A DNA stretch of 32,000 nt, from NCBI RefSeq assembly GCF_000025925.1, contig NC_014033.1, positions 1,050,001 to 1,082,000 on the forward strand. The letters run 5' to 3'. The notes beneath the pieces were generated by a model. The model worked only from the letters and a program-made list of their open reading frames with translations. It had not been told where the DNA came from and made no database searches. Positions 12,935-32,000 of this stretch are shown in pieces (positions within the stretch are counted from its first letter, which is position 1; every line of letters begins with the position of its first letter). Origin of the DNA: Xylanibacter ruminicola 23. Lineage in GTDB: Bacteria > Bacteroidota > Bacteroidia > Bacteroidales > Bacteroidaceae. The position numbers were made by a program, and so were the translations under genes.

Positions 12935-13007
12935 GCACCCGTAGCTCAGTTGGTAGAGCACCTGACTCTTAATCAGGGTGTCCAGAGTTCGAGCCTCTGC
13001 GGGTGTA
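12935..13007 (+). tRNA. tRNA-Lys (anticodon CTT)
   Basis: Hand-folded cloverleaf: acceptor GCACCCG/CGGGTGT (G1-U72 wobble), D arm GCTC-AGTTGGTA-GAGC, anticodon arm CCTGA-CTCTTAA-TCAGG, T arm CAGAG-TTCGAGC-CTCTG, discriminator A. CCA is not encoded. Confidence 0.9.
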
Positions 13008-13049
13008 CTTTTTGCAAGAAAACAGGCCCTAAAAAGCCACCAAAATGAT

Positions 13050-13122
13050 GCACCCGTAGCTCAGTTGGTAGAGCACCTGACTCTTAATCAGGGTGTCCAG
13101 AGTTCGAGCCTCTGCGGGTGTA
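13050..13122 (+). tRNA. tRNA-Lys (anticodon CTT), second identical copy
   Basis: 73/73 identical to 12935-13007 and shares the AAAATGAT 5' flank. Followed by a hairpin terminator. Confidence 0.9.
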
Positions 13123-13139
13123 CAAGTGAAGAAAAAAGA

Positions 13140-13390: not shown

Positions 13391-13423
13391 AGTCTTCCGG
13401 TGGCTGCACAAAAAAACAAAATT

Positions 13424-14569
13424 ATGAAACAACATGTAAGAGTGGTCTTTGACCGCAAGAAGGCCTCGGCCAAGACAGGAACTGGTAAGATTGAACTGTG
13501 TGTTTACCTGAAAGAAGGTGAACGCAAGTGGATCACTGTTGGTACAGCATCGCCAGAGAATTGGATGTCTGTATCAAACTCTCGCAGCATCACCTCAAAG
13601 GTGGAGCACTACGAACAGGTTATTAAAGCCATGGAACTATTGAAGGAGGATATGACAATATCCAACTTCAACCGCTATGTAGAGTTTGAGCAACTGGGAC
13701 TTAATCAAGATAAAGTGCTCTTCAATGGCAATGATTTGCGACAGAGCTTCGTGGAGTTTTGTCGTAAACATATGGAGCAAGAGAATCTGGCTCAGAACTC
13801 TATTAAGGATATCAAGGTCGTTTTAAAAAGTGTTGAAGAGTCTGGATTACTCAATACATTAGCTGATCTAACACCTGCCAATGTCCGAGCTTATGATGCC
13901 TGGCTTAGAAAGCCAAACACCAGAACTGATTATACAATTAATGGGTATCATAAGAAGGTACGCAAGTACACAAAGATTCTTTGGCAACAGGAGATTATTT
14001 CAATTGACCCTTATGACCATGTAAAGTTTCCAAAGGGCACAAATAAGGAGCGTCATCCACTTACTGAGAATGAAATCATCAAGATTCGTGATGCAGAGTT
14101 CTATGGTCGTAAAGACCGCGCAAGAGATTTGTTCGTCTTCATGGCATATACTGGACTTGCTTATTGCGACATGTGCTTGTTTAACTTCAAAACGATGACA
14201 GAATTGCATGATGATTATTATTATATCGACGGTGCTCGTCTGAAGACCGGTTCGAACTTCTTCACTCCTATCCTACCACCTGCTTTGGCCGTGCTCGAAA
14301 AATACGACTTCAAGTTGCCAATTATCAGCAATCAGAAGTTGAATGATTATTTGCATCTCATCCAAGATACATTGGATATTAGAAACGAAGTAACCTGTCA
14401 TATCGGTCGCCACTCGTTTGCTACGCTTATGCTTACTTATGGCATCCCCATCGAGAAAGTAAAGAGAATGCTCGGACACAAGAACATTGCAACGACTCAG
14501 ATCTATGCTAAGATTCTGAAGAAGAATGTAGAGGATAGTGTCAACGAGATTCTCCCTACACTCAGATAA
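13424..14569 (+). CDS. Tyrosine site-specific recombinase (phage integrase, Bacteroidetes type with N-terminal arm-binding domain)
   Basis: The N-terminus VRVVFDRKKASAKTGTGKIELCVYL is typical of the Bacteroidetes integrase arm-binding domain. The C-terminal catalytic region reads HIGRHSFATLML...LGHKNIATTQIYAKI (H-x-x-R ... H ... Y). The start is set at ATG 13424 (the track start is GTG 13400). Confidence 0.9.
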   Translation: MKQHVRVVFDRKKASAKTGTGKIELCVYLKEGERKWITVGTASPENWMSVSNSRSITSKVEHYEQVIKAMELLKEDMTISNFNRYVEFEQLGLNQDKVLFNGNDLRQSFVEFCRKHMEQENLAQNSIKDIKVVLKSVEESGLLNTLADLTPANVRAYDAWLRKPNTRTDYTINGYHKKVRKYTKILWQQEIISIDPYDHVKFPKGTNKERHPLTENEIIKIRDAEFYGRKDRARDLFVFMAYTGLAYCDMCLFNFKTMTELHDDYYYIDGARLKTGSNFFTPILPPALAVLEKYDFKLPIISNQKLNDYLHLIQDTLDIRNEVTCHIGRHSFATLMLTYGIPIEKVKRMLGHKNIATTQIYAKILKKNVEDSVNEILPTLR

Positions 14570-16528: not shown

Positions 16529-19500
16529 TTATTTCCTGCGACTTTTGGGTGATTTGTTACGGATGAGCTGGGCGTATTCGTCCTGGGCCTGTTTGATGCC
16601 GGTGTCGCCAGTGACGGTGTTGACTGTCACAAAAGGTTCGCTGAGACGATCCTTCAACTGGCGCATGATATCGGCATACTCCTTCATCTGCTTGTCAGAC
16701 TGTTCTGACTGCTGCTGGGTGGGCTGCAGGATAACTGTCGGCGATGATGGTGCGGACTGTGCGTACACGCTCGGAGCCACGATACTTCGTGAAACGTCAT
16801 CCGAGCGTAATGAACCGATGGTGTTCGTTCGCTGGGCATAGTCCAAAGCCTCAATCATCGGGCGGGCTACGGGCGACTGCAGTAACTCCTGACTGGCCAC
16901 CCACTCCCCTTTATGTACGATGCCGGCCACCTCGTATTTACCGCCGTCGCCGGTGAAGCCACCCTTGGCGTAACCCTGCGCGGCCGATGCCTCCTGCTGC
17001 TTCTTGATGGCAGCCACCTGTAGCATGCCTGCAGCTACAGCCGAAGCTGCTGCGATTGGTGCCAGGATGTAACCGATAAGTGGTACTGCAGCCGCTGAGC
17101 TGTAGGCATTGATGGCAGAAGTAGCTGTCTGTGCGATGGCCTGCATCACCTGCATCTTGAACATTTTCTTGTTCGCGTCGGACTTGACCTTGGCCACCTC
17201 CTGCTCCTTCTGCTTCTCAAGTTTCTTCACGATATAATTGTTACCTTCGGCGTTGGAGATTTCCGCCTGGTATCGCTTTTCGATGGCAGCGATTTGTATA
17301 TCCGCTTCGGCCTGAATGAGCGAAGACATCTGTTGGAAGATGCTGCTCATGCCGGAGCTGATGACATCCAGGGAACCAGTGACCGCCTTACCCATATCTG
17401 ATTGCAGCCACTCCTGAGTGGCGTCGGTCCATTCTTCGAGGAATGACTTGTTATCGTCGAGTTCGTCGATGCCGTACTTCTTACGCAGGGCCTTTTTCGC
17501 TTTCTGGTAGTCCTCTTCGATACGCAGTTTCTCTTGGGCGTTGTTGTCGGCTGCTTGTATCTCCAGGTCATAGACTACTTTGAGTGCTTCCAGGTCGGTC
17601 ATATACTTATTTGTACGCTCAGAGCGGCTGTCCCCGAAATATTCCTCCTTGATTTTCTTCAGTTGGTCCTGATGCTTCTTCTCGGCGGCTTCCGTCTCCT
17701 GTTGGCGTCGCTTCTGGTCGGCAATGAGTTTGTCCTGATATTGGGTCTGCGCCTGCGTGTATTCTGTCGTGCCCTCTTCATAGATCGACGTCATGCGCTT
17801 CAGGTGATTCAATTCCAAGAGCTCCATTGACTGCTGGTAAATCTCCTGGTCTATCTTCCCATCGATATAGCGTTGCTTCTGGATGGACATTGCTTCGTTG
17901 TAAAGCTGTGTCTCCTGTTCCACAGTGATTTTTGTATGCTGCTCCGATTGCTTCTTTTCAGCCTCTGCATATGCTGCCTGAGCCTCCAGCTTTTCTATTT
18001 CCGTGAGGTCGCTGTGTTGTAGGATCTTCGTCTGGTATTCGATTTCGATTTCCAGAATGCGCTTCTGGTACTGTTCGTAGTTCTGCTGACCGGTGGCATA
18101 ACTGATTCGATTGAGGGCTTCTTCCTTGGCTTTCCAGTCCTTTTCCTCCTTGAAGCGCTCCTGTTTTTTACTGTCGTCAGTGGGAGGTGGTGTTGGGGTC
18201 TTCTTTGGGTCTTCGGCCTTTGCTAACTTCTCCGCTTCGTCTGCCAGGCGCTGATTGTCCGCTGTGAGGGATTCGATGATGTTGTTGTACTGTGTCACCG
18301 TCTTGTCCAGACGGGACTGTTGCAGCTTCCATGCCCTGTAGGCAGTAGGACTTACATTAGCGCTGCGGATGGCCTCCGATTCCGACTGGCCCTGCTTTTC
18401 GTTGAAATAGGCGTCCTGGATGTTATGTGGCGCATCGTTGAAATGCACGTCGCGCTGATGCTCAGCGTCGGGCAGCTTGTCTAAAGCGGCTTTGATTTTG
18501 GCAGAGTTCTTCAGCTGTTCCGTATAGTTTTTCAGGATCTTGATGTTGTGACCATAGAGCTGGCCCTCCTCGCTGATGCTCGCGTGGTAGTCAGGTATGA
18601 TCTGTTGCAGCTCCTCGATGGCCTTGCGGCGCTTGTTGACAGATAGAGACTCGTTTTCTATCGTACGTTTTAGCTGCTCAATGCGGTTGATTTCCTCGCG
18701 TGTGTTGCGGTCGGCTTCCTCATTGATATCCTTCAGGCGCTTCTGAGCTGCAGCGGCCGTGCTGCTTGATTTGGCAAACTTCACGTACATTCCAATCAGG
18801 AGTGTCATAGCTGTGATGGCCACACCCATGGGGTTCATCTTCAGTACCTTGTTAAAGAATGTCTGTGCTGCTGTAGCGGCGGTGATTTCCCCTCTTAGTA
18901 CCTTGTGTTTGAGGATAGAGGCTGCCAATGCCGTGTTTTCGATGGCTATTGCTGCAGCCTTCAGTTTGGCGACGGCAATGTATCTGAGCGACCAAAGATG
19001 TTGCAGTTTGACGGCTGTATAGTAGCCCACTACAGCAGCAGTAAGTGTGATGAGTGTGCCTTTGTATTTCAGGATAAAATCTACTAGCGTAGAGAGAACT
19101 TTCAGTATGAGTGTTGTACTGCTCAGAACGTGACGCATGACGGGCTGCAGCTTTTCACCCAGTTCGATGGCCATTTCCTTGACACGCTTGCGTGCCTTGT
19201 CGAGTCCGGCCTGTACCGTAGTGTTCTGTACGTTGTATTCCTTGGTGACCGATGTTGCTTCCTTGAAAGCCTTCGCTGCTTCCGACTGTTCCCAACGAAT
19301 CATATCCAAATTACCTGCCAACGCAGATATGACCTGAGCAACTCGGGCACCGTTTTCTCCCATATCCTTGAAAATGGGTGCCAGAACGTCGATGTTACCC
19401 AGTTTGTCGAGCGTGTCTAGGAGCATCAGCAGGCCCTCGTTTGTTCCCTTGGCCAGCGTCTGCTTGAACTTCTCCGCATTCATGCCCGTAGCCTTAATAA

Positions 19501-20551
19501 TCTTATCCTGCTGCTTGAACATGTCCATGATCAGCTTCGAGACAGCTGTGGCCGACATCTCAACGGCCTGTCCCTGAGAGTCGAGGACAGCGGCCAGACC
19601 CATAATCTGTGGGATGGTCATTTCTGCCTGGGCACCTACGCCTGCCATACGCTTGGCGAAGTTGGCCAGGTATGGAGCTGATGCGGTGCAGTTCTGTGAG
19701 AGCTCGTTGATGACAGAACCAACAGACAGCAACGCTTTTTCTGTGCCTAAACGCTCTTCGTCGCCGAAGATGTTGGTCAGTTTGGAGAGTGTGAGTGTGG
19801 CCCCGTCGCCGAGCTCGTCGAGTGCGACATTGATCTGGTCAGCCGCTTTCACGAATCCCATGATATCCTCTTTCGACTGCTTGCCCAGTTTACCCGCTTC
19901 CTCTGCAAGGATGTTCAGCTGTTCACGGCTGGAGCGTGTGTCCATCTTCTTGAATTCCTCGTTCAGGTCCTCGACTTGTTCCTTGGCCATGCCCGTGAAC
20001 TTGCGGACATTAGCCATCTCTGCGTCGATGTCCGCATAGGCTTTCACAGCGGAACGGCCGGCCATAATGATACCTGTTGCAGCAGCTATCATGCCCATGA
20101 GTGTGGTCTGCCAGTCGTTCATCTTACGGTTGAAGCGGTCCCAGAATCCCTCGCCAACGGTCAGCTCGGTGTTGACCTTGGCGAGTTCCGCTTTTACCCG
20201 TTTGATGGCTTCCGCCTGCCGGTACCACTGCTCTGTACCTCGTTCGATACCGTTGAGCTGCTTCTTGAGAGTGGCTAGTGTCTTGTTCAGTTCCTTGGGT
20301 GTTGCTCTGTCGAGGTTCTTCAGGACCTTCTCCACGCCGGCAGTAGCACTCTCTATCTGGGTTATCTGCCGGTTGGTCTGCTTCAGTTCCTTCTGAAGTC
20401 GTTTGAGTTCTACCTTGTTACCCGCTTTTGCTGCGTTCTCGATAGCATGTTCCAGGTCTTGTGATTTCTTTTTGAGGTTGTCCAGCATATCCTGCGCCTG
20501 TTTGCCGTTGACAGTCAGGGTGACAGTTGCGTTTGTGTTGATTGATGACAT
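16529..20551 (-). CDS. Phage tail tape measure protein
   Basis: 1340 aa. It has long coiled-coil Q/E/K-rich stretches, central hydrophobic helices, and a C-terminal GGFTGDGGKYEVAGIVHKGEWV motif common in tape measure proteins. Confidence 0.85.
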   Translation of the reverse strand: MSSINTNATVTLTVNGKQAQDMLDNLKKKSQDLEHAIENAAKAGNKVELKRLQKELKQTNRQITQIESATAGVEKVLKNLDRATPKELNKTLATLKKQLNGIERGTEQWYRQAEAIKRVKAELAKVNTELTVGEGFWDRFNRKMNDWQTTLMGMIAAATGIIMAGRSAVKAYADIDAEMANVRKFTGMAKEQVEDLNEEFKKMDTRSSREQLNILAEEAGKLGKQSKEDIMGFVKAADQINVALDELGDGATLTLSKLTNIFGDEERLGTEKALLSVGSVINELSQNCTASAPYLANFAKRMAGVGAQAEMTIPQIMGLAAVLDSQGQAVEMSATAVSKLIMDMFKQQDKIIKATGMNAEKFKQTLAKGTNEGLLMLLDTLDKLGNIDVLAPIFKDMGENGARVAQVISALAGNLDMIRWEQSEAAKAFKEATSVTKEYNVQNTTVQAGLDKARKRVKEMAIELGEKLQPVMRHVLSSTTLILKVLSTLVDFILKYKGTLITLTAAVVGYYTAVKLQHLWSLRYIAVAKLKAAAIAIENTALAASILKHKVLRGEITAATAAQTFFNKVLKMNPMGVAITAMTLLIGMYVKFAKSSSTAAAAQKRLKDINEEADRNTREEINRIEQLKRTIENESLSVNKRRKAIEELQQIIPDYHASISEEGQLYGHNIKILKNYTEQLKNSAKIKAALDKLPDAEHQRDVHFNDAPHNIQDAYFNEKQGQSESEAIRSANVSPTAYRAWKLQQSRLDKTVTQYNNIIESLTADNQRLADEAEKLAKAEDPKKTPTPPPTDDSKKQERFKEEKDWKAKEEALNRISYATGQQNYEQYQKRILEIEIEYQTKILQHSDLTEIEKLEAQAAYAEAEKKQSEQHTKITVEQETQLYNEAMSIQKQRYIDGKIDQEIYQQSMELLELNHLKRMTSIYEEGTTEYTQAQTQYQDKLIADQKRRQQETEAAEKKHQDQLKKIKEEYFGDSRSERTNKYMTDLEALKVVYDLEIQAADNNAQEKLRIEEDYQKAKKALRKKYGIDELDDNKSFLEEWTDATQEWLQSDMGKAVTGSLDVISSGMSSIFQQMSSLIQAEADIQIAAIEKRYQAEISNAEGNNYIVKKLEKQKEQEVAKVKSDANKKMFKMQVMQAIAQTATSAINAYSSAAAVPLIGYILAPIAAASAVAAGMLQVAAIKKQQEASAAQGYAKGGFTGDGGKYEVAGIVHKGEWVASQELLQSPVARPMIEALDYAQRTNTIGSLRSDDVSRSIVAPSVYAQSAPSSPTVILQPTQQQSEQSDKQMKEYADIMRQLKDRLSEPFVTVNTVTGDTGIKQAQDEYAQLIRNKSPKSRRK

Positions 20552-20583
20552 GATTTACAAGTTTAAATATGGATTTACAAGTG

Positions 20584-20591
20584 CAAATATA
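20584..20591 (-). promoter_or_regulatory. -7 box (TATATTTG on minus strand) directly upstream of the tape measure gene
   Basis: CAAATATA on the + strand lies 33 nt upstream of ATG 20551. The leader consists of two direct ACTTGTAAATC repeats (minus-strand sense; 20552-20562 and 20572-20582). Confidence 0.45.
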
Positions 20592-21120
20592 GTTTCGTGC
20601 GTGTTTATGTGAAAAGACGTGTCTGATGCCCATGCCTGAGACTTGACTGGGTGAAGGTATGGGGCGCACATCAGGCACTTTTCATTGATTATCCCACAGT
20701 TATTTGTTAAAACTGAAAATAGTTAAGTTAATAACCCTTTCGGTTGCTGATAATCAATGACTTACGGGATTGTTAAGGGCTGTGCCCTTAACCCGTCGGG
20801 ATAGACACCCCCCACGCGCCCTGCCCTCGCCTCCCGCTCCCAACGCTCAGAAGAAGCGGAATATGTAAACAGATGTTAAGAAAATGGGGCTTGAAGTCGG
20901 ATATTGTTAAGAAAGCCCCCGAAGTTGCGCATAGGCTCAAAAGCCCTTGAAATTCAGCTAAAATGACGAATGTGCGGTACTGAGCCACAGGTGCGACACG
21001 AAATCCCTTTGACTTGGCAAAGGGTTGCGTGGCGTACTTGTGGAATGGGCGAATCAGACACTCTTCGGCTTGACCTCAATCTTTGATTGAAATCATAGCC
21101 GATGTGTGTCCGCCCTGGCG

Positions 21121-21288
21121 CACGGATGTGCGGTACTGGGCAGGGGTGAACAGGCATAAAGAAAATCAGAGGCAGAGTGTTGGCTCACCAGAGCCTTAAC
21201 GTGCCCCTGACTTTTCTGTTGACTGTTCTCTCCTGCTTGCCTCCAGAGCCGAATGTGGCTGGGCTTTATGCGCTGCCTCTTTCGGCTG
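21121..21288. repeat. Structured non-coding module, copy A (long form)
   Basis: Shares ordered blocks with copy B: CACGGATGTGCGGTA, GGGGTGAA, CTCCTGCTT, and a 42-nt block AGCCGAATGTGGCTGGGCTTTATGCGCTGCCTCTTTCGGCTG (41/42 identical). Copy A also carries a 73-nt insertion (21152-21224) inside a conserved stem. Confidence 0.6.
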
Positions 21289-21291
21289 GAA

Positions 21292-21705
21292 CTACTGTTT
21301 TAGCATGGCTTTGCCGTACTTGTACCACCAGTAAACAGAATTGTAGAGTGCGTAAACACGCTCTTTGAAGAAGTCTGGATACTTTGGTGTTAGCTCTTCT
21401 GCATTGTAACCTGCAATGACACAGATGAAAGAGAGGTCGGCCTCGATGTAATCACACCATTTGTTCTGACCAAGACACCAACCGAGGATGTTATCAAACT
21501 CGGCTTCGCTTTTTGGCAACTGCACGTGCACGACAAGGTGCGGCTTGTCCTGCTGGTACAGGAGCCAATAGGAACCATGTCCTTCGATGTGTTTCAACTC
21601 TGCCTTGAAGGACTCGAAGGCAACATGCTTAGGCTTTAGCCCAGGCTTCTGTAGGCGTGGGAACAATACTAAATCACTTTTTTCAATCTTTCTGATTTCC
21701 ATCAT
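21292..21705 (-). CDS. Hypothetical phage protein (137 aa)
   Basis: Clean ORF with a plausible composition and its own -7 box at 21819-21826. No motif recognised. Confidence 0.6.
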   Translation of the reverse strand: MMEIRKIEKSDLVLFPRLQKPGLKPKHVAFESFKAELKHIEGHGSYWLLYQQDKPHLVVHVQLPKSEAEFDNILGWCLGQNKWCDYIEADLSFICVIAGYNAEELTPKYPDFFKERVYALYNSVYWWYKYGKAMLKQ

Positions 21706-21818
21706 CGTAAATTTTTAGTGGGTTAAACAATCTCACTCACATCATTTTACCACCGATGCCTACGACAGTTGGCCGGTTGGTGGGCAAATTGTGCCACTCT
21801 TGATGCAATTTTCTGCTG

Positions 21819-22202: not shown

Positions 22203-22305
22203 CACGGATGTGCGGTAAAAAAGAGGCTGGGGTGAATTTGATTCACTCCTGCTTATTGATGATAGCCGAATGTGGCAGGGCTTTATGCGCTGCCTCTTTC
22301 GGCTG
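22203..22305. repeat. Structured non-coding module, copy B (short form)
   Basis: Same block order as copy A. The stem GGGGTGAAT-ttg-ATTCACTCC (22229-22249) closes with a 3-nt loop where copy A has a 73-nt insertion. Confidence 0.6.
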
Positions 22306-24691: not shown

Positions 24692-25111
24692 CTATTTAAA
24701 GATGTAGTCATACTCGTGAACATTGAACGAAGGACAGGCCTTGGCTGCGAATTCGCGGTGGCCATGAAGAGTGGCTTGTGGGTAGCGTTTGTGAAGTTCC
24801 GTCAGGATCTTCACGAATGCTTCCTTCTGGGCTGGTGTTCGGGTATCCTTCTCGGTAAGCTTAGCGTCTCTAGCGCAACCGCCGACATAGCATACTGCGA
24901 TGGAGTGCTTATTGTAACCAGAGCAGTGTATGCCAGGGATGGACTCATCCAGGCATTGATGGATGGTGCCGTCGAGGTATATCAGATAGTGATATCCGAT
25001 GTGGGACCAGTGATTGTCCTTGACGTGCATACGTCTGATATCTTCGACAGTCTGGACTCGGCCTTCGGGCGTAGCTGTGCAGTGGCAGATAATCCTATTT
25101 ATCTCTCTCAT
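24692..25111 (-). CDS. N-acetylmuramoyl-L-alanine amidase endolysin (Amidase_2 / T7-lysozyme / PGRP fold)
   Basis: 139 aa with IICHCTATPEG, HIGYHYLI, NKHSIAVCYVGG and HGHREFAAKACPSF, the zinc-amidase signature of T7-lysozyme-type endolysins. Confidence 0.9.
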   Translation of the reverse strand: MREINRIICHCTATPEGRVQTVEDIRRMHVKDNHWSHIGYHYLIYLDGTIHQCLDESIPGIHCSGYNKHSIAVCYVGGCARDAKLTEKDTRTPAQKEAFVKILTELHKRYPQATLHGHREFAAKACPSFNVHEYDYIFK

Positions 25112-25479: not shown

Positions 25480-26424
25480 ATGAGAATAAGAGATATAGAT
25501 GTGAATTTTGATTTTACTTCTGATACCAAAGGATTTTGGGAAGGCTTTTGGGAAAGAAACGATGGACTTGGGGCTGGAGGCGCAGATCCTGATTCCAGAA
25601 GTAAAACGCTTAGACTATATAGTCAGCTATTATGGAGTAAGCCATTACCTAATGGTGAATTAATGGAACTAGAAGATGGCAGAAGTAAATTCTATCTAAA
25701 ATGGAAGGATTTCTATTTCGGAAACGATTCTATTACTGCTTCTTTTAGATATTATCGAAACAGACCGCTTTTGGAAGAAGTAAAGAAGAATGTACCCGAT
25801 TATCATCAGTTCGTAGAAACGTATCTTCATCAACTATATCAGATTGGTGGTGAAGTCATATTGCCATCTGCGGTCGGGGGAATAAATCAGACTAGGGGAT
25901 TTCGGGCTGATATACGTGACCGATGGGATTTGACATTAGAATGTATTCGTCGATTCTATAATGGAGATGACAGCCCATTAAGTGATGTATTGAATAAGAA
26001 TAAAGCTTTTTTTGAATTGTTTGTGGACTTTAAGGGCTATGTGGATTTCTTCTTTTTTCAAGATCTTGTCGATAAGAATTATGCAAGTGTCAAACTATGG
26101 TTGGATACTCCGCTGTTTGTAAAGAACCCCATCCCAAAGACTGTTGATGAATACTTTAATTTCTTGAACAAGGAAATAGAATTTGTAGAAAGTAGGAATA
26201 TAAGAATTCAGCATTACATTAATTCTGTGACTAAGAAGGATGAATTTACAACTATGATGCACGCTGACCTACTAGCTGAAGACGGTTGGTCGAGATTAGA
26301 TGTCATGGTGCTCGGTGCCTATGCAAATATTCTAAAAGGAATAAAGAAAGCCGATGCCTGTAAGAATCACGGTATCACGATAGAAGAATATGATGAGAAT
26401 ATAGAGCGAGTCAAAAAGCTTTAA
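25480..26424 (+). CDS. AT-rich orphan protein (314 aa), function unknown; opposite strand to all neighbouring phage genes
   Basis: Clean ORF with Trp/Phe/Asp-rich N-terminal motifs (GFWEGFWERNDGLGAGGADPDSRSKTLRLYSQLLWSK). Its stop TAA (26422-26424) abuts the stop of the convergent gene. Confidence 0.75.
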   Translation: MRIRDIDVNFDFTSDTKGFWEGFWERNDGLGAGGADPDSRSKTLRLYSQLLWSKPLPNGELMELEDGRSKFYLKWKDFYFGNDSITASFRYYRNRPLLEEVKKNVPDYHQFVETYLHQLYQIGGEVILPSAVGGINQTRGFRADIRDRWDLTLECIRRFYNGDDSPLSDVLNKNKAFFELFVDFKGYVDFFFFQDLVDKNYASVKLWLDTPLFVKNPIPKTVDEYFNFLNKEIEFVESRNIRIQHYINSVTKKDEFTTMMHADLLAEDGWSRLDVMVLGAYANILKGIKKADACKNHGITIEEYDENIERVKKL

Positions 26425-26853
26425 CTAATGATTGTACCTCCTGTAATTTTCGTCTATTGCTTTGGCTACGATGCCGACGAAGGACTGGCCGATGTTATCA
26501 GCCAGGAAATCACGGAGGTTGAGAACTGAGGAATAATACTTTCGAGAGAACCACTTCTTAGCGACACGTCGCTTTTCACGACCTATATCCCCGGAGTTGC
26601 CTCTGGGGATTTCCTTTCCTGTACCGAAATCTTGCCAAAGTCCGTATTCGAGGAAGGCCTGTGACAAGCCTATCTCGATAAAACGGCCATCGGCTCTTAC
26701 TGGCAAAGCGCTGACGGAGTGCAGCAGCCGGCCTGTGTCGATGACATCCAGCAGTGTAATCTGCTCCTGCCAGATTTTAAGCATAGTGTCGTTGAAAGCG
26801 AGAACGTATTTCTCGCGCTCGCCTTGTGGATCGGGATGCTGATTCAAGTCCAT
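26425..26853 (-). CDS. HK97-gp10-like phage head-tail/tail-completion protein
   Basis: 142 aa. The central segment TGRLLHSV...FLEYGLWQDFGTGKEIPRG resembles the TG-L-S ... YA-YVE-GT signature of the HK97 gp10 family. Overlaps the upstream gene by 10 nt. Confidence 0.5.
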   Translation of the reverse strand: MDLNQHPDPQGEREKYVLAFNDTMLKIWQEQITLLDVIDTGRLLHSVSALPVRADGRFIEIGLSQAFLEYGLWQDFGTGKEIPRGNSGDIGREKRRVAKKWFSRKYYSSVLNLRDFLADNIGQSFVGIVAKAIDENYRRYNH

Positions 26854-27383
26854 TCCTCCTGGTTGAATTGTAAATCGGTGTAGGTGTCAACGGCGATTTG
26901 GAAGTACGCACAAGCGCATCCTGAGAAGAAATAGCGGTCGATTTCTTGGAAGGAGATACGAGGGTCGATATAAATAGATTGCTGCTGCAGACGAGTGTGC
27001 TCCTGGATCAGGACAGACATAAACTGTCGGAATAGCTCGCGCATGGCGTCCATACAGGACTGGCGGACCACCATGTTGTCAATGGTGTGGCGCATGGCTA
27101 GGAACACTGTCTTCACACGGCGAGTGTGCGGTGTGTTATTGATGTCCGTAAATCCCTGTGAGATGTCGGACACGCAGACGAAAGCCGCTTTTGTCTGCAT
27201 TTTGGCCAGTGCTTCTTCGAAGCCGTCAAGCCCAGAAACTCGACAGAAGGTGAAGTGCTTGGACTGAGCGAACTTGTTGCGCTTGGTTAGGTCTTCAAAG
27301 AACGATGTGGCATCCCAGTTGAAGGAGTCGTTGTTCTTTGTTTGTGTTGGCTGTTCAGGCGTATGTGGAAGAAATGGTAACAT
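26844..27383 (-). CDS. Hypothetical phage structural-module protein
   Basis: The ORF is open from 27512. ATG 27383 (MLPFLPHTPEQ...) was chosen because the upstream ATG 27509 would overlap the preceding gene by 53 nt. The start remains uncertain. Confidence 0.45.
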   Translation of the reverse strand: MLPFLPHTPEQPTQTKNNDSFNWDATSFFEDLTKRNKFAQSKHFTFCRVSGLDGFEEALAKMQTKAAFVCVSDISQGFTDINNTPHTRRVKTVFLAMRHTIDNMVVRQSCMDAMRELFRQFMSVLIQEHTRLQQQSIYIDPRISFQEIDRYFFSGCACAYFQIAVDTYTDLQFNQEEWT

Positions 27384-27456
27384 AAGTAAGAGTATAAGGA
27401 ATGTATGTAAATGTTTGGTAAGTAGGCTATTGTGTGATAACTGTGTAACAAACTTG

Positions 27457-28209
27457 CTAAGGTTTCTTATAAGCCTTTCGAAGCTCTTCTGCTTCCTTTG
27501 CCTTAGCATCAAGCTCGGTGAGCGCGCGCCAGGTATCCATCTTTAGGATGCGCTCTTCTTTGGTGATATCGCCACCTGTTAGGGCGCGGATCATGGCATT
27601 CGTACTGTCACGCAACTGACTGTAGATATCCGGCTGGCTGGAGCCCAGCAGATTGGCCTCGCCCTTAGCGGGGGCTGGCTTATAGAAGTTCGTGAAGAGC
27701 GATGCGAAGTACTGTTTGAGTGAAGCCATCCAGTAGAAGATACCTACAAGATGGGCTTTCGAGGGCTTCACATGGTCGCTTCCGTATAGGATTTGTGCCA
27801 TCTGAAGCAACAGTTCATCCTGCTGAGTGTTGAGATAACCCTGGAACAGGTTGTCAACATACAGATACTGCTCAAAAGGAACTTTCTCGAAGTCCGCTGG
27901 CAAAGCGCGGTGCTTGCCTATTCGTGAGATACGAATGGGCATAGGTGCTAATGAATCAAGATAATCAAGAACTGAGGTGGCTTGCTGAATCTGCCTGACT
28001 TTGAGCACAACCTGCTCTTTTCCTCGCTTTATGAGGAAACGATGGCTCGGCAGAGTGGCTAGCACCTTTAAGTGATTCCACTTCATGAGGCAGAGGGACT
28101 TGACCTCTGCTGCAGACAAGTCGCGTGCGAATAGTCCATAGACCATGAGCAGCTGCTCGTCTGTCAATTCGGGCCAGCTGGTGGGCAATGTGATATTGAA
28201 CATTTTCAT
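27457..28209 (-). CDS. Hypothetical phage structural-module protein (possibly chaperone-like)
   Basis: 250-aa ORF with a charged helical C-terminus (TGGDITKEERILKMDTWRALTELDAKAKEAEELRK). No firm motif recognised. Confidence 0.5.
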   Translation of the reverse strand: MKMFNITLPTSWPELTDEQLLMVYGLFARDLSAAEVKSLCLMKWNHLKVLATLPSHRFLIKRGKEQVVLKVRQIQQATSVLDYLDSLAPMPIRISRIGKHRALPADFEKVPFEQYLYVDNLFQGYLNTQQDELLLQMAQILYGSDHVKPSKAHLVGIFYWMASLKQYFASLFTNFYKPAPAKGEANLLGSSQPDIYSQLRDSTNAMIRALTGGDITKEERILKMDTWRALTELDAKAKEAEELRKAYKKP

Positions 28210-28213
28210 GGGG

Positions 28214-28221
28214 CAAAGATA
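28214..28221 (-). promoter_or_regulatory. -7 box (TATCTTTG on minus strand) abutting the 250-aa gene start
   Basis: CAAAGATA lies only 4 nt from ATG 28209. This implies a leaderless or near-leaderless mRNA, or use of the second ATG at 28203. Confidence 0.4.
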
Positions 28222-28343
28222 GATATTCTATGTGGATATTGGAAAGACACGGGAAGCTATATTCTACTAGATAACTTAATCCTACAATTTATTGAAGAAA
28301 TATAAATATACAAAATTATATTTGTAGGTTGAGATTTATTATT

Positions 28344-28351
28344 TATATTTG
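28344..28351 (+). promoter_or_regulatory. -7 box TATATTTG for the 136-aa orphan gene
   Basis: TAnnTTTG match about 140 nt upstream of ATG 28491. Confidence 0.4.
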
Positions 28352-28490
28352 CAACGGATTTATCATCCACCAGGGGCTTAAAGAATCGAGTAGCAATATT
28401 CGTGGAGGGCTGGGTGATTCCCAAGTGGATAGCGCGGCTGCCAGTCTTGAAGGAATTTTTGTATATAAAAAGAAACTAAAAAGTACTAGT

Positions 28491-28901
28491 ATGACAATAG
28501 AGCAAATAAAAGAGATTTTCATTGGAATGGGTAATAAGCCATGTCCATTGACAGAGAAATTGGTATATACTGGATATCAACAAGTAAGTGGTGGCTATAT
28601 TGCACGTGCAAAGAAAGAAGGGATATTAGTTGATTACAAGAAGAATTCCCCCTCCCAATATTGGCATTTAATGACATATTGTGATAGCAACGATGGTAAT
28701 AAGAAGTTCAGCAAAAGCATTGTTTGTGGTGAATTGATTTTTTGGATGGCAGAGGTGTCAGGTGCTGTGGACAAAGCGAGATTGGAACAATTGTTGGAAG
28801 AGATTGTCGAAAGCGCAGATCGGACAAAAGGCATTAAACCGACTTACGATAGAAAAAAGTGTAATAGAATCATTCAAGAAGTTTGTTTTGTTTGGAAATG
28901 A
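28491..28901 (+). CDS. AT-rich orphan protein (136 aa), function unknown
   Basis: First ATG of the 28329-28901 ORF (MTIEQIKEIF...). The track start is a TTG that overlaps the promoter region. Confidence 0.55.
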   Translation: MTIEQIKEIFIGMGNKPCPLTEKLVYTGYQQVSGGYIARAKKEGILVDYKKNSPSQYWHLMTYCDSNDGNKKFSKSIVCGELIFWMAEVSGAVDKARLEQLLEEIVESADRTKGIKPTYDRKKCNRIIQEVCFVWK

Positions 28902-28977
28902 AAGTTGAACTTGAAATAATCGGAAATATTTAGGGCATTTCTTTGTTTTATCGATAGAATTAACTATCTTTGCAGCG

Positions 28978-29060
28978 CGGGATGAGAGAGGGAGGTAATG
29001 CCCCCGCATTCTGCACCTAAGTTCGGGCAATCCTTTTTTGGAGTGCCCGAAGCTCTTTTT
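28978..29060 (+). ncRNA. Candidate ~85-nt small RNA (promoter + two hairpins + U-tract)
   Basis: A -7 box TATCTTTG lies at 28965-28972. It is followed by hairpin GCGGG...CCCGC (28977-29007), then terminator TTCGGGCA-N14-TGCCCGAA (29022-29051) and GCTCTTTTT. The only ORF is 12 codons (MREGGNAPAFCT). Confidence 0.3.
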
Positions 29061-29073
29061 CTGATTTGATTCT

Positions 29074-29127
29074 CGAAGACATTTGGGGTGTAGAGGGCGC
29101 CGACTGGGGAGGTGTGTCAGCGGGGAA
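29074..29127. repeat. Degenerate copy of the 3' end of the 282-aa gene (left arm of a direct repeat)
   Basis: CGAAGACATTTGGGGTGTAGAGGGCGCCGACTGGGGAGGTGTGTCAGCGGGGAA aligns by hand with 30918-30972 at about 49 of 55 positions, with one 1-nt indel that breaks the reading frame. Confidence 0.7.
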
Positions 29128-29224
29128 CTCTACAGTATGTTTACAGATGAGGTTAACTAGGCCGTAGAAACATAGGGATAATTTGGTTGTGTTAAACTTA
29201 TACTATCTCAGAATTGTTCAGGGA

Positions 29225-29995
29225 TTATTTGTTAATGTTTGATTCCCATTCCTGATGGAACTTGGTCCATTTATCGCTATGGGCACCGAGAGCACCAATT
29301 TGGCGAGGGTGTGCCAATGGGAGAACATTTACGGTGTGACCGTCAACGGTAGCAGCCGTGATAGTGCCGTATCCATAAAGCTCAACATACTCCTGCAGGG
29401 ATTTATAAGGAACTTCAGCAACCTTGTTTAAGAACTGTGCAATGGGGATATCCCCGAGGAGAACCAAAAGACTAGCTTTTGATTCCTTCAGTTCTGAAAC
29501 GATTTCTTGGCGTCTCTTGTCATCGCAGAATACTGTTGGCCGTTTTGGTATGTTCACTTCATTGAGGCCATACTTCTCTATTAACGGATTATATTCTTTC
29601 TCGATCACTTTTGCTTGGCCGTCGTTGATGCGTGTTTCAGGAAGAAGGTCGCACAACCATGCGTTTTTCCTTGAGTAGCCAAGAATCCCGAGGATATGTT
29701 CATCGAGGACTTTGGCAGAAGGGCCGTTGAGATGTTCTCCGGCCGGTTCTAGCGTTCCTACTTCTGTAGGAATCTGTATCTTAGATATTATTTCTTTTGC
29801 TTCATCGATGTTGCCGTCCCAGAAGATACGTGGTTCACTTGCAACAGCCAAAGCTGGACATATAGTTTTGCCGTCTTTCTTCCAACGCGCATGAACTGCA
29901 CTTGCATAGACACCTAGAACGAAAACTTTTTTAGGAGTACGGTCTTGCTGTACTAATGATTGGACCTGTTGGCCGAATGGGTATTGGTATGACAT
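29225..29995 (-). CDS. Hypothetical protein with possible uracil-DNA-glycosylase-superfamily fold
   Basis: 256 aa from ATG 29995 (MSYQYPFGQQ...). VFVLGVYASAVHA near the N-terminus and VLPLAHPRQIG near the C-terminus are placed like UDG motif A and the HPS-type motif B. The resemblance is weak and judged by eye only. Confidence 0.35.
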   Translation of the reverse strand: MSYQYPFGQQVQSLVQQDRTPKKVFVLGVYASAVHARWKKDGKTICPALAVASEPRIFWDGNIDEAKEIISKIQIPTEVGTLEPAGEHLNGPSAKVLDEHILGILGYSRKNAWLCDLLPETRINDGQAKVIEKEYNPLIEKYGLNEVNIPKRPTVFCDDKRRQEIVSELKESKASLLVLLGDIPIAQFLNKVAEVPYKSLQEYVELYGYGTITAATVDGHTVNVLPLAHPRQIGALGAHSDKWTKFHQEWESNINK

Positions 29996-30019
29996 AATTA
30001 GATATTTATAATTTTGTGG

Positions 30020-30027
30020 CAAAGATA
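30020..30027 (-). promoter_or_regulatory. -7 box (TATCTTTG on minus strand) for the UDG-like gene
   Basis: CAAAGATA lies 24 nt upstream of ATG 29995. Confidence 0.45.
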
Positions 30028-30066
30028 CATCTTTTTGTTGGAATGTCCAAGGATTATGTGAAATAA

Positions 30067-30273
30067 TTACAATTCGTCGAATCTTAGGAGATCATCTGTT
30101 TTTACGTCAAGAAGAACAGATATCTTCATGAGGGTTTCAATTGATGGCTGGGCATCGTTTGTGCACCACTTGCTTACTGTGGATGGTGTAACGCCTAGCT
30201 GTTCGGCTAGCCATTTGTTGGTTCTATGTTTTTCAACTAGAACCACTTTAATTCGGTTTATATTCTTCTTCAT
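30067..30273 (-). CDS. XRE/Cro-CI family helix-turn-helix transcriptional regulator
   Basis: 68 aa from ATG 30273 (MKKNINRIKVVLVEKHRTNKWLAEQLGVTPSTVSKWCTNDAQPSIETLMKI...), the classic HTH_3 pattern. Confidence 0.85.
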   Translation of the reverse strand: MKKNINRIKVVLVEKHRTNKWLAEQLGVTPSTVSKWCTNDAQPSIETLMKISVLLDVKTDDLLRFDEL

Positions 30274-30274
30274 A

Positions 30275-30308
30275 TTTGCACTATTTGAATTTTTTGTGTG
30301 CAAAGGTA
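30275..30308 (-). promoter_or_regulatory. XRE gene promoter (-7 box CAAAGGTA at 30301-30308) overlapped by inverted repeat TTTGCAC-N16-GTGCAAA
   Basis: The inverted-repeat arms lie at 30275-30281 and 30298-30304. The right arm overlaps the -7 box, which makes it a candidate auto-operator. Confidence 0.4.
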
Positions 30309-30385
30309 CGAAAAAAGAAATGAAACGTGAAAGCGAATGCTTTAAACAAGAAAAATATTGTTAATAATTAGCTGTGTTTTTTGTT

Positions 30386-30414
30386 TTGCAAATATTATCT
30401 TTGTAAATTTGCAA
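30386..30414 (+). promoter_or_regulatory. Promoter of the small-peptide gene (-7 box TATCTTTG at 30396-30403) bracketed by inverted repeat TTGCAAAT-N13-ATTTGCAA
   Basis: The inverted-repeat arms lie at 30386-30393 and 30407-30414. They share the TTTGCA core with the palindrome at the XRE promoter. Confidence 0.4.
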
Positions 30415-30466
30415 TAATAAACATCATCAAAACAAAACTTTTAATAAAAGAATACAATTAATAAAA

Positions 30467-30610
30467 ATGGGATTTATTGCTTTGGTATGCTGGCTTATCG
30501 TTAGTGTCATAATCATTATAATAGCTATCTCTATAGGAGGATGGGGATATGCTTTATTTCTTTTTATTTTCGCCATTTTTTATTTGTATGTTAAAAGAAA
30601 CGATTATTAA
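30467..30610 (+). CDS. 47-aa hydrophobic two-TM peptide (below the ORF-track cutoff)
   Basis: Hand translation gives MGFIALVCWLIVSVIIIIIAISIGGWGYALFLFIFAIFYLYVKRNDY*. It has its own promoter and is divergent from the XRE gene. Confidence 0.4.
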   Translation: MGFIALVCWLIVSVIIIIIAISIGGWGYALFLFIFAIFYLYVKRNDY

Positions 30611-30837
30611 CAACTTTTATTATGATCTTTGGCGGAATACATCCCCTCTCCCCAAGGCTATAGGGTAAGTCATTGACATGTTTTATGTGCTAATACAAGT
30701 ATTCTATTGACTATACTTAGTATTGTCATACCTTAGGTTAGCATCATCAGCATAATAATTGATTTGTTATTGATGTACCAGTATGTTGATGGACTGGAAA
30801 AAGGATTGTAAAAGACCATTTTTAAAATCTATCTTGT

Positions 30838-30866
30838 CCCCGCTCACTATTATTAGTGTAGCGGGG
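30838..30866. terminator. Hairpin between the small-peptide unit and the end of the 282-aa gene
   Basis: CCCCGCT-CACTA-ttatt-TAGTG-t-AGCGGGG with A/T-rich flanks on both sides. It lies 17 nt past the stop of the minus-strand 282-aa gene. Confidence 0.45.
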
Positions 30867-30882
30867 ATTATAATATTTGTAT

Positions 30883-31731
30883 TTATAACCAGTAACCACC
30901 AGATGACTTTTGGTTCACGAAGACTTTGGGGGTGTAGAGGGCGGCGACTGCGGAGGTGTGCCAGGCGGGGAATATTTCTTCGTGTTCGCGAATGATAGTG
31001 ATTAGATCGTAATAACATTGGGGGTGAACTTGGATGTTGTTTAGAAGCTCCAACTCGTAGGACTGCAGGGATTTAATCACCTGCTCTTCGAGGGGTGATG
31101 CGCTGCGGTGCTGGGTGAATACGTGGGAGCGGAAGACTTGCATCTGCTCGTGAGAGAAGTATGTGTCGGCAAGAACGGACTCTATCTTTATGAGACGTTC
31201 GTGCAGCTGCTGGTAGGAGTCCCAGATATGTTCGCGGATGGCGAGACGGCGGCAGAGGCTCAGGAACGGGAACATTGTGGCGGCGAAGTATTTACCTGGT
31301 TCGCTTTGCTGCCAGTCCGTTCTACTGGATAGACGAAGGATGAGAGCTTCGATAGCGGCGTCGCGCTGAGACTCGAGAGAGGCGATCAGAGCGGCGACGC
31401 GCTCACGAGAAGCGGGAACAACTGTCTGATTTGAGACGATACCGAAACCATTAGGGGTCAAGACTAAATCAAGCGAAGGGATGGCTGTCATATAGGCATG
31501 ACAGGCTACGAGCTTTTCCAAGGGGAAACGGAAACGCTCGTTAGGACCTGAGCTGTCAGCTTCAGCTATCTCGGCAAAATTGGCTTCAGGAACGAAAGTG
31601 TCCATTACCCATTGCTCGGCAGACTCGAGATATGGGTAAAGCTTTTCAATCAATGTAGGCTCACCCTCAACGGTGGCCAGTACGTTAGGTATGAGCAAGC
31701 GCAGCTGCTCGTCGGTGGTAATCAGTTTCAT
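30883..31731 (-). CDS. Phage structural-module protein (282 aa; possibly head-tail adaptor)
   Basis: Clean ORF coupled to the upstream gene by a TAATG overlap. Its last ~18 codons (30918-30972) are duplicated in degenerate form at 29074-29127. Confidence 0.55.
   Translation of the reverse strand: MKLITTDEQLRLLIPNVLATVEGEPTLIEKLYPYLESAEQWVMDTFVPEANFAEIAEADSSGPNERFRFPLEKLVACHAYMTAIPSLDLVLTPNGFGIVSNQTVVPASRERVAALIASLESQRDAAIEALILRLSSRTDWQQSEPGKYFAATMFPFLSLCRRLAIREHIWDSYQQLHERLIKIESVLADTYFSHEQMQVFRSHVFTQHRSASPLEEQVIKSLQSYELELLNNIQVHPQCYYDLITIIREHEEIFPAWHTSAVAALYTPKVFVNQKSSGGYWL
30918..30972. repeat. Right arm of the ~55-nt direct repeat (intact coding copy)
   Basis: See 29074-29127. This copy encodes FPAWHTSAVAALYTPKVF at the C-terminus of the 282-aa protein. 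Confidence 0.7.
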
Positions 31732-32000
31732 TATTCTTCTTCAGTCTTATTCGGTGTAACAAGCTTAGCGTCTCTATTTTCATCAAGCGTTGAAAGCATG
31801 ATGAATGGACAATCGGGATGAACGCCTTCCCAACCGTTGAACCTTATAATGATATGGTGAACGGTGAAAAGAAGGTCGTGATATGGCTTCTGCAGAGCCT
31901 GAGCGATGGTATAGAGCTCACGCTTGTCAGAACCGGAGTTGTTTGTCTGACTCTTTCCTGGTACTGAGCCGACGAGGTTAGAATGAACGCGCATCGTAAA
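31731..32000 (-). CDS. Phage protein, probably 5'-truncated by the window edge
   Basis: The frame stays open from the stop at 31731-31733 to position 32000. ATG 31994 is the only in-window start. Confidence 0.5.
   Translation of the reverse strand, partial: FTMRVHSNLVGSVPGKSQTNNSGSDKRELYTIAQALQKPYHDLLFTVHHIIIRFNGWEGVHPDCPFIMLSTLDENRDAKLVTPNKTEEE

Follow-up and report, generated by a model that had tools for sequence, protein, structure and literature searches.

A prophage accessory hotspot in Xylanibacter ruminicola with a relic of a flanking gene between its cargo blocks

Background

Morons, and genome mosaicism by illegitimate recombination, are textbook phage genomics (Hendrix, Juhala and Pedulla; lambdoid and HK97-like phages). 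The moron and illegitimate-recombination idea is also mentioned in PMC3029335. It is established that prophages contain hotspots which are flanked by conserved genes and filled with defence systems (PMC9122126; bioRxiv 10.1101/2024.10.15.618418), the mechanism of turnover of the P2/P4 hotspots having been left open (Rousset et al. 2022, PMC9122126). Relaxed homologous recombination between diverged phage sequences by Rad52-like recombinases has been documented (De Paepe et al. 2014, PMC3945230). Here, we describe a locus of this known kind, a prophage accessory hotspot, in a 32,000-nucleotide (nt) stretch of the chromosome of Xylanibacter ruminicola 23 (contig NC_014033.1, positions 1,050,001 to 1,082,000; the whole stretch is called 'the window' below). 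The hotspot lies between two conserved prophage genes encoding proteins of 282 and 250 amino acids (aa), and among its cargo the 282-aa gene has a second, decayed 3' end (called 'the relic').

The locus has in common with the P2/P4 hotspots (PMC9122126) and the iLund4u hotspots (bioRxiv 10.1101/2024.10.15.618418) a slot bracketed by core genes, alternative cargo of atypical composition, and defence genes, with AbiD and PDC-S26 among the cargo found here. It differs from the P2/P4 hotspots in belonging to Prevotellaceae prophages, in its position in the late-gene block and not next to cos, and in that its internal boundaries keep relics of both flanking genes. As with morons, the cargo resembles self-contained promoter-gene-terminator units among late genes, with deviating GC content and with junctions at gene borders after selection; unlike morons, several units are stacked, junctions inside the ends of the flanking genes leave pseudogene fragments, and one fragment has apparently been reused as a crossover site. 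Integron arrays, and islands that duplicate the 3' end of a gene, likewise show stacked cassettes, related short separators and a repeat of a gene 3' end with the gene left intact, whereas the present locus has no integrase, no conserved core, variable boundaries, cassettes in both orientations, and imperfect mosaic repeats. In the literature searched, no mention was found of DUF6712, the family to which the 282-aa protein belongs, and the Prevotellaceae hotspot is undescribed there.

Results

The 282-aa protein was scanned against viral contigs and one genome per GTDB species, which yielded 160 loci from rumen Prevotellaceae, Muribaculaceae, Paludibacteraceae and human-gut Prevotella/Leyella. 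Homologues of the 282-aa protein were present in 152 loci, and homologues of the 282-aa and 250-aa proteins, followed by the 222-aa and 142-aa genes, were syntenic in 132. When relatives were aligned across the junction, as the first-pass annotation of the window had proposed, 70 of 126 unique loci (those containing both flanking genes) were empty, with the flanking genes overlapping by at most 7 bp or lying at most 65 bp apart, while the other 56 were occupied by 0.4-6.5 kb of cargo (median 1.2 kb). The cargo of the occupied loci came in 44 arrangements and comprised 94 families, counted from open reading frames (ORFs) of at least 100 aa, and cassettes were found in both orientations. No single arrangement was common to all relatives: the closest three (L001, L002 and L003), with 92-96% aa identity in the 282-aa protein, each carried different cargo. 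The relatives' cargo included AbiD (3e-50), the PADLOC candidate PDC-S26 (2e-59), a radical-SAM/pVip-like protein, a caspase-Sel1 protein with a CHASE2 partner, an REase-ARP nuclease, UmuC-like polymerases, a BspA-type leucine-rich repeat protein and many predicted lipoproteins; the window's own four cargo genes gave no PADLOC effector match. The GC content was 0.27-0.43 in the window cargo versus 0.49-0.54 in the flanking genes. The same flanks were thus found with empty sites, with alternative cargo, and with recognised defence genes in relatives, and the hotspot is common to a large family of Prevotellaceae/Bacteroidales (pro)phages; we consider it highly probable that the junction between the 282-aa and 250-aa genes is an accessory hotspot that carries a recombination scar. 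The earlier suggestion of a repeat-bounded hotspot stands as regards the hotspot, while the slot is defined by two conserved genes and not by the repeat.

The repeat in the window is a direct one, with 85% identity in ungapped alignment (29065-29125 against 30909-30969) and matches in 56 of 64 columns, with one 1-nt indel, in gapped local alignment (29065-29128 against 30909-30973); the longest exact run between the two copies was 15 nt. As a control, 100 shuffles of the tail segment were searched against the rest of the window, giving scores of 23.3 +/- 2.1 (maximum 31) relative to 86 for the real alignment, about 30 standard deviations above, and a chance low-complexity match is ruled out. 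Among the direct repeats in the prophage part of the window, no more than two reach 30 nt, and this is the longer one. The first-pass annotation had described the last ~18 codons of the 282-aa gene as repeated; the repeat is real, its extent had to be corrected, and it stops ~25 nt (8 codons) short of the stop codon at 30883-30885. In minus-strand translation, the relic copy reads *HTSPVGALYTPNVFENQ where the 282-aa gene has WHTSAVAALYTPKVFVNQ, and both the indel and a stop disrupt its frame, the loss of frame having been noted before. Weaker colinear similarity to the gene extends upstream to ~29193, seen at the protein level as C-[YF]-Y-x-L-[IV]-x-[IL]-I-x-x-H-x-x-x-F-P-A, so that the relic measures ~130 nt, or ~160 nt with the 31-nt spacer that lies between it and the stop codon of the neighbouring cargo gene (29225-29227). 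It corresponds to nt ~694-824 of the gene and is without the last ~25 nt and the stop codon. The relic is therefore a pseudogenised tail of the 282-aa gene, as had been proposed. Its identity to the window's own gene tail was heterogeneous (58% in the proximal and 88% in the distal part; Fisher p = 1.3e-4), and the distal part was closest to the tails of the window's own clade (87-88%). The relic occurs in five independent assemblies, and the arrangement containing it is thus unlikely to be an assembly artefact.

The cargo is a mosaic. What had been read as a single cassette of 1.8 kb ending at the repeat contains at least two blocks of separate ancestry (30317-30874 and 30316-29224), and the variable region extends further, to the start of the 250-aa gene at 28209, with a fourth gene included. 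In total, the window cargo spans 28210-30882 (2.67 kb) and consists of at least four blocks, each with different relatives. The block at 30317-30874 had no match in any locus, L001 and L190 carrying other DNA there, and its 47-aa ORF had no homologue in any locus examined. The block at 30316-29224, with an XRE regulator gene and a 256-aa gene, was common to L001, L177, L179, L190 and L192 at 86-95% identity, and is the only part of the window cargo that L001 has (92% identity). Between the repeat copies, all three units of the first-pass annotation exist and the XRE regulator was confirmed (PF01381, 45.4 bits versus a cut-off of 23), while the uracil-DNA glycosylase (UDG) fold proposed for the 256-aa protein is weakly supported and the 47-aa ORF is without homologue. 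The block 29064-28490, beyond the relic, showed 91.5% identity to L167, the homology beginning exactly at 29064, the relic's right end; in L167 the same hotspot holds a unit of three genes, with the homologue of the 136-aa gene in last place.

Breakpoints were found inside the relic. In L008, a homologous UDG-like gene is followed by a similar spacer (31-36 nt) and by a relic starting at the same gene position (nt ~694), in contiguous alignment with the window (74% identity over 30011-29065), and the founding junction is therefore old and inherited. The common origin of the two relics is indicated by the shared spacer and the identical start in the gene; shared derived substitutions were rejected as proof of this ancestry, there being only one such site in the securely aligned part. 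A degenerate pattern of the UDG/relic junction matched, in viral contigs, only the contig of L008 and two unrelated chance sequences. Scanning metagenomes with the UDG-like protein gave three loci (L178, L189 and L191) carrying the XRE-UDG-relic order at 92-96% identity to the window. Their relics pass the stop codon and continue for 22-44 nt, and are followed by three unrelated cargos (1.5, 3.0 and 1.7 kb) before the 250-aa gene. Over the first ~140 nt, the relics of these loci and of the window were 94-96% identical; over the last ~50 nt, the three were 78-87% identical mutually and 47-53% identical to the window, where the 136-aa block is joined. The distal ends resemble different functional tails (L003-type and L004-type), and L191 continues into part of the cargo of L004 at 93% identity. 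The L008 relic is uniform in its identity to the gene (76% and 79%). The distal divergence among the relics, together with the proximal/distal heterogeneity in the window, therefore points to crossing-over within the relic, the partners being functional tails from other phages, and on balance we favour the relic acting as a homology arm.

Relics were also found in other stacked arrays, when every occupied site was searched with the 282-aa gene tail of every locus (scores of 36-161, versus at most 26 with shuffled tails). Internal cassettes were commonly preceded by a remnant of the 282-aa tail and then by the leader that elsewhere follows the intact gene. Relative to the gene end, the remnants began at -12 in L009 (100% identity to L011 over 66 nt), -17 in L022, -29 in L016, about -75 in L014 and L084, -39 and about -62 in the human-gut clade, and -155 in L008, where the stop codon and hairpin are included. 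In the reciprocal search, the leader and the first 10-36 nt of the 250-aa gene were found directly upstream of tail remnants, with head relics in other arrays reaching +13, +36, +28 and +23. In L074, the 3' flank of the F3 cassette does not differ from that of L133 up to nt 13 of the 250-aa gene, and this head remnant is followed by a degenerate 282-aa tail and then by the F1 leader of L075; both parental arrangements are in the data (F15-F3 in L133, and F1 in L075 and L140). A head fragment fused to a tail fragment, in reversed order relative to the empty site, is the product of a single out-of-register crossover between two related genomes, and such a crossover is therefore the explanation that we give. 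Variable boundaries, and the absence of any recombinase or transposase with the cassettes, argue against a site-specific mechanism. Most relics may be short because long duplications are lost fast by recombination between their copies.

Since a scan for sigma-70 promoters and terminators gave counts near the shuffle expectation and is uninformative for Bacteroidetes, Bacteroidetes-type -7 boxes (TAnnTTTG) were used in its place. Such boxes precede the XRE, UDG-like, 47-aa and 136-aa genes, and stable hairpins follow the convergent gene pairs in the window cargo, among them a hairpin at 30838-30866 that is terminator-like in predicted fold; the cargo units thus appear to carry their own Bacteroidetes-type promoters and hairpins. 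Across the hotspot, a box within 40 nt 5' of the 250-aa gene was found in 28 of 59 occupied versus 1 of 73 empty sites, and cargo insertion therefore goes along with a new putative promoter for the late genes downstream. Of the 59 occupied sites, 36 had a box no more than 60 nt beyond the 282-aa stop. In occupied sites, the box lies 12-15 nt before the ATG of the 250-aa gene, implying a near-leaderless mRNA.

The 256-aa protein had 3,173 homologues, nearly all unnamed, and no match in Pfam, PHROGs, PADLOC or PDB by sequence or profile. Its AlphaFold2 (AF2) model had a predicted local distance difference test score (pLDDT) of 67, and the top 27 Foldseek matches in PDB all belonged to the UDG superfamily (UdgX, the family-4 UDG 4zby, MUG and TDG), with weak statistics (E 0.05-0.3, template-modelling score 0.22-0.46, probability at most 0.96 for the best matches). 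A precomputed PF03167 match exists in one homologue. Among the invariant columns of the family are F25-V-L-G-V-Y-A-S32 and L225-P-x-A-H-P-R-Q232; by eye, the latter resembles motif B (HPS/HPA-type), and the former is without the P-G of the canonical motif A (GxxPG-type). From the model, a UDG-like fold is plausible. UDG-superfamily glycosylases can be antiviral, as in the case of Brig1 (PMC11078745), and by analogy the protein is possibly a defence glycosylase. The likeness to Brig1-type glycosylases (PMC11078745) consists in a single-gene UDG-superfamily unit in mobile or defence contexts, and the Brig1 paper also cites the Sulfurisphaera tokodaii family-4 UDG 4zby, which is second among the PDB matches here; the difference is that the fold match of the 256-aa protein is weak and that the two are likened via fold and not via sequence. 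The UDG-like gene recurs in the hotspot with different partners (L008, L017 and L161). One homologue, with 70% identity, lies by itself beside MgsA/RarA in an ordinary chromosomal context, which makes a repair role equally possible. For the cargo as a whole, a role in superinfection defence or regulation is probable.

On the minus strand, the gene order is the 462-aa gene, the 282-aa gene, the variable region, and the 250-aa, 222-aa and 142-aa genes (features of the window are listed in Table 1). For the 282-aa protein, DUF6712, a family with about 1,350 homologues, was the sole family match and no PHROG match was found; an AF2 model based on 23 homologues (identity 79% or more) was unusable (pLDDT 39.6). 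The gene sits between the highly conserved 462-aa gene and tail genes, a position consistent with the label 'structural gene' that it had been given, and in view of the missing PHROG match and the unusable model, this label is a positional guess. The duplicated tRNA-Lys before the integrase is probably the attachment site of the prophage, to which the remainder of the window past the integrase belongs. A BLAST search of 26400-32000 against the GenBank phage collection returned only a 141-nt match to an unannotated record, and no annotated relatives. The 462-aa gene, 5' of the 282-aa gene, shows extraordinary conservation, the C-terminal 87 aa of its product keeping 76-100% identity even in loci with no more than 30-35% identity in the 282-aa protein; the 462-aa protein had no Pfam match and only a marginal match to a portal family of PHROGs.

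Table 1. Positions of the hotspot, its cargo and surrounding features in the window
Feature	Position	Strand	Remarks
282-aa conserved gene, left hotspot flank and repeat source	30883-31731	-	DUF6712 (PF20459, 4e-21)
Repeat copy within functional 282-aa gene	30909-30973	-	codons ~253-274, ...FPAWHTSAVAALYTPKVFVNQ
Repeat copy in relic, well-kept distal part	29065-29128	-	
Relic of 282-aa gene 3' end	29065-29224	-	31-nt spacer 29224-29194; pseudogene copy 29193-29065
AT-rich block, window-only	30317-30874		GC 0.27-0.30; carries 47-aa hydrophobic ORF
G+C-rich hairpin CCCCGCT...AGCGGGG	30838-30866		between convergent 282-aa gene and 47-aa ORF; RNA fold
47-aa ORF, very hydrophobic	30467-30610	+	TATCTTTG box 5' at 30396-30403
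TACCTTTG box of XRE gene	30301-30308		
68-aa XRE/Cro-type helix-turn-helix regulator	30067-30273	-	HTH_3 8e-12, phrog_8
UDG-like gene, 256 aa	29225-29995	-	weak fold match
Separate cargo block	28490-29064	+	136-aa ORF, orphan box, hairpin
Hairpin in block 28490-29064	29019-29055		RNA fold
Orphan TATCTTTG box	28965-28972	+	
23-aa ORF MPPHSAPKFGQSFFGVPEALFLI	28965-29062 region	+	
136-aa ORF	28491-28901	+	annotated as 158-aa hypothetical protein PRMUPPPA20_14330
AT-rich promoter region	28210-28489		TATATTTG boxes (+) at 28317 and 28344 face 136-aa gene
TATCTTTG box	28214-28221	-	5 nt before 250-aa gene ATG
250-aa conserved gene, right hotspot flank	27457-28209	-	
462-aa gene	31731-31994		L001 6613-8001
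Host chromosome	1-12.8 kb		Rho, PP-loop ATPase, RlmI-like methyltransferase, FtsK, DUF5687
Two tRNA-Lys(CTT) genes	12935-13008 and 13050-13123		equal scores, 42 nt apart, just before integrase
Tyrosine integrase of prophage	13400-14569		
Tape-measure gene	16529-20551		
Long non-coding stretch	20552-21290		upstream of tape-measure gene
42-nt direct repeat, hairpin-like AGCCGAA...TTCGGCT	21247-21288 and 22264-22305		98% identity
137-aa ORF	21292-21705	-	no family match
SAM-I/IV riboswitch aptamer (RF01725)	21701-21811	-	57.4 bits vs gathering 41.1, E 4e-7
Amidase	24692-25111		
314-aa DUF6994 gene	25480-26424	+	1.4e-74

The 136-aa protein is 100% identical to P0241, a hypothetical protein of X. 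ruminicola, and had one distant relative in viral contigs; a protein search also recovered L167. Homologues in L171-L173 and L170 recur in a conserved unit, in which a HIRAN-domain protein and a SecG-like 73-aa protein precede the homologue and a 277-aa protein comes after it, and which adjoins DUF4942 and ParA-like genes; this suggests a mobile-element leading-region or anti-defence module. Within the block of the 136-aa gene, a 23-aa ORF follows the orphan box, crosses the hairpin toward the relic and is kept in L167; a transcript starting at this box would be antisense to the relic as well as to the UDG-like gene at its 3' end. A further gene, encoding a 314-aa DUF6994 protein, lies between the 142-aa gene and the lysis genes on the opposite strand; its GC content is low (0.33-0.37), and it resembles another cargo insertion. 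In the unrelated contig L170, a DUF6994 gene stands beside the 136-aa homologue, a PDDEXK_4 nuclease and a WYL protein.

A second repeat pair, at ~21.2/22.3 kb, which the first-pass annotation had cited together with the repeat of the 282-aa gene tail, proved to be similar in that L001 has a single 42-mer and is without the ~975 nt between the copies; the prophage thus has a second insertion bounded by repeats. The pair brackets a SAM-I/IV riboswitch and a 137-aa gene, the aptamer being directly 5' of the ORF, and L004 and L083 carry a homologue of this insert at 83% identity. The riboswitch and its gene are located between a 449-aa gene and the tape-measure gene, and a riboswitch-controlled cargo gene within a phage tail module is unusual. 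The long non-coding stretch upstream of the tape-measure gene had no Rfam match; many distant relatives, human-gut Prevotella phages among them, retain its part at ~20762-20883 with 74-82% identity, and CACGGATGTGCGGTA-like motifs recur at ~20970, 21121 and 22203. The stretch may be a structured RNA or a regulatory region.

Discussion

The observations are best accounted for by an accessory hotspot in which arrays grow by out-of-register recombination and relics are reused, and we put the probability of this whole account at roughly 75%. Two related genomes would recombine out of register, the end of the cargo in one being joined to a point inside the 282-aa gene 3' end of the other, so that the recombinant would retain one intact 282-aa gene, both cargos and, between them, a dead gene tail. 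The 64-nt repeat would then be the best-kept part of the dead tail behind the XRE/UDG-like unit. Once formed, the relic would constitute a second copy of the target homology, and crossovers that pair it, by relaxed homologous recombination, with a functional tail in another phage would swap the DNA downstream or, equivalently, add the XRE/UDG unit to a related phage with the resident cargo kept. Later deletions would trim the array; in the window, the last 25 nt of the relic, at the point where the 136-aa block is joined, were probably lost by deletion of intervening DNA. By analogy with Rad52-like relaxed recombination (PMC3945230), short homologies diverged by ~10-20% could explain the crossovers between relic and tails, with the difference that the link is inferred here, the relevant part of the prophage lying outside the window. 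A tentative extension, which we rate as somewhat doubtful, is that cargo flanked by two core-gene tails is a homology-driven add-on cassette that does not displace resident cargo; ordinary or relaxed homologous recombination would carry it into any related phage, either through a double crossover or through pop-out of a circle with Campbell-type re-entry. On this tentative reading, relics of core genes at cassette boundaries would be the general device by which phage hotspots accumulate and shuffle defence genes without a dedicated recombinase.

Several points weigh against this account. The relic of the window is without an adjacent 250-aa head relic, unlike those of other stacked arrays, and its founding history may differ. 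Few sites underlie the drop in identity that L178, L189 and L191 show in the last 50 nt, and recombination at the relic is read from static comparisons of sequences, as are the pathway and the direction of events. Either of the two repeat copies could be the 'old' one. With a longest exact run of 15 nt, recombination between the window's copies can be expected to be rare by now. For the 282-aa protein and all four window cargo genes, functions are predicted at most and unproven.

Among the alternatives, the one that comes nearest is an in-situ tandem duplication of the 282-aa gene or its 3' part, with cargo landing between the copies and the downstream copy decaying, in which case the relic would have formed with no recombination between phages. 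The same outcome would be expected (intact gene, cargo, decayed tail), and the distal relic is indeed most like the tails of the window's own clade (87-88%), but simple duplication does not yield the 250-aa head relics fused to tail relics in other arrays, parental single-cassette arrangements exist for stacked arrays, and the same UDG/relic junction is present in L008, whose 282-aa gene is only 84% identical; we regard this explanation as unlikely. Slightly less likely again is retention of the relic for a function, as a promoter upstream element, a terminator or a regulatory RNA segment. The loss of precisely the terminal part from the window relic, the broken frame, the decay of the proximal part to 58% identity, and a next gene that is convergent on the other strand all speak against it, even though the TAnnTTTG box of occupied sites mostly lies 8-14 nt after the 282-aa stop, the last 20-30 nt of the gene thus being a promoter upstream region that is included in the short relics before co-directional cassettes, and even though the L008 and L191 relics retain stop, hairpin and box.

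A site-specific cassette system, integron-like or an att element, would treat the gene tail with its hairpin as the recombinase site and the repeat as attL/attR. Direct repeats of the target 3' end around an insert, with the gene intact, are the classic integrase pattern, many relic boundaries lie near the stop-codon hairpin TCCGCYTATTGGTTTTAGGCGGA, and the cassettes are stacked array-like. Yet no recombinase was found in or beside any cassette, the only integrase (13400-14569) being ~15 kb off; the left ends of the relics vary from -12 to -155 and those of the head relics range from +10 to +36 on their far side; identity between the copies is 87%, with an indel; cassettes occur in both orientations; breakpoints lie at differing places inside the relic; and in the human-gut clade the gene end is without a hairpin, which together leave such a system very improbable. 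An integron-like array was rejected for the want of a recombinase in or beside the slot and of a fixed boundary, and an integrative att element since there is no integrase between the repeats and the DNA between them is mosaic and differs among close relatives. A transposon or insertion sequence was likewise rejected, with no transposase domain and no inverted repeat at the block ends; the inverted-repeat pairs that were found (14-21 nt, 75-88% complementary) are consistent with chance. Finally, for a chance or low-complexity similarity, or for the template and variable repeats of a diversity-generating retroelement, there speaks the G-richness of the segment on the plus strand. These are negligible as explanations given the score ~30 standard deviations above shuffles, the colinearity at the protein level and the recurrence of the relic in five assemblies, and, as regards a retroelement, given seven mismatch types (A>G, T>A, A>T, T>G, C>G, G>C and T>C) that are not adenine-specific and the lack of a reverse transcriptase in the window.

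Conclusions

What is new in this locus, relative to described prophage hotspots, is the preservation of junction fragments that document out-of-register stacking, together with the breakpoints within the relic. Prophage hotspots are a source of much new anti-phage defence biology, and the turnover of their cargo has been described as unknown (PMC9122126). The present hotspot is widespread in rumen and human-gut Bacteroidales, and with dozens of uncharacterised families beside defence genes it offers a mining ground. The boundary fragments of both flanking genes are unusually direct evidence for array growth by out-of-register recombination, and the breakpoints in the relic suggest that such fragments are reused as crossover sites, which, if true, would be a simple, additive and recombinase-free way of gaining cargo.

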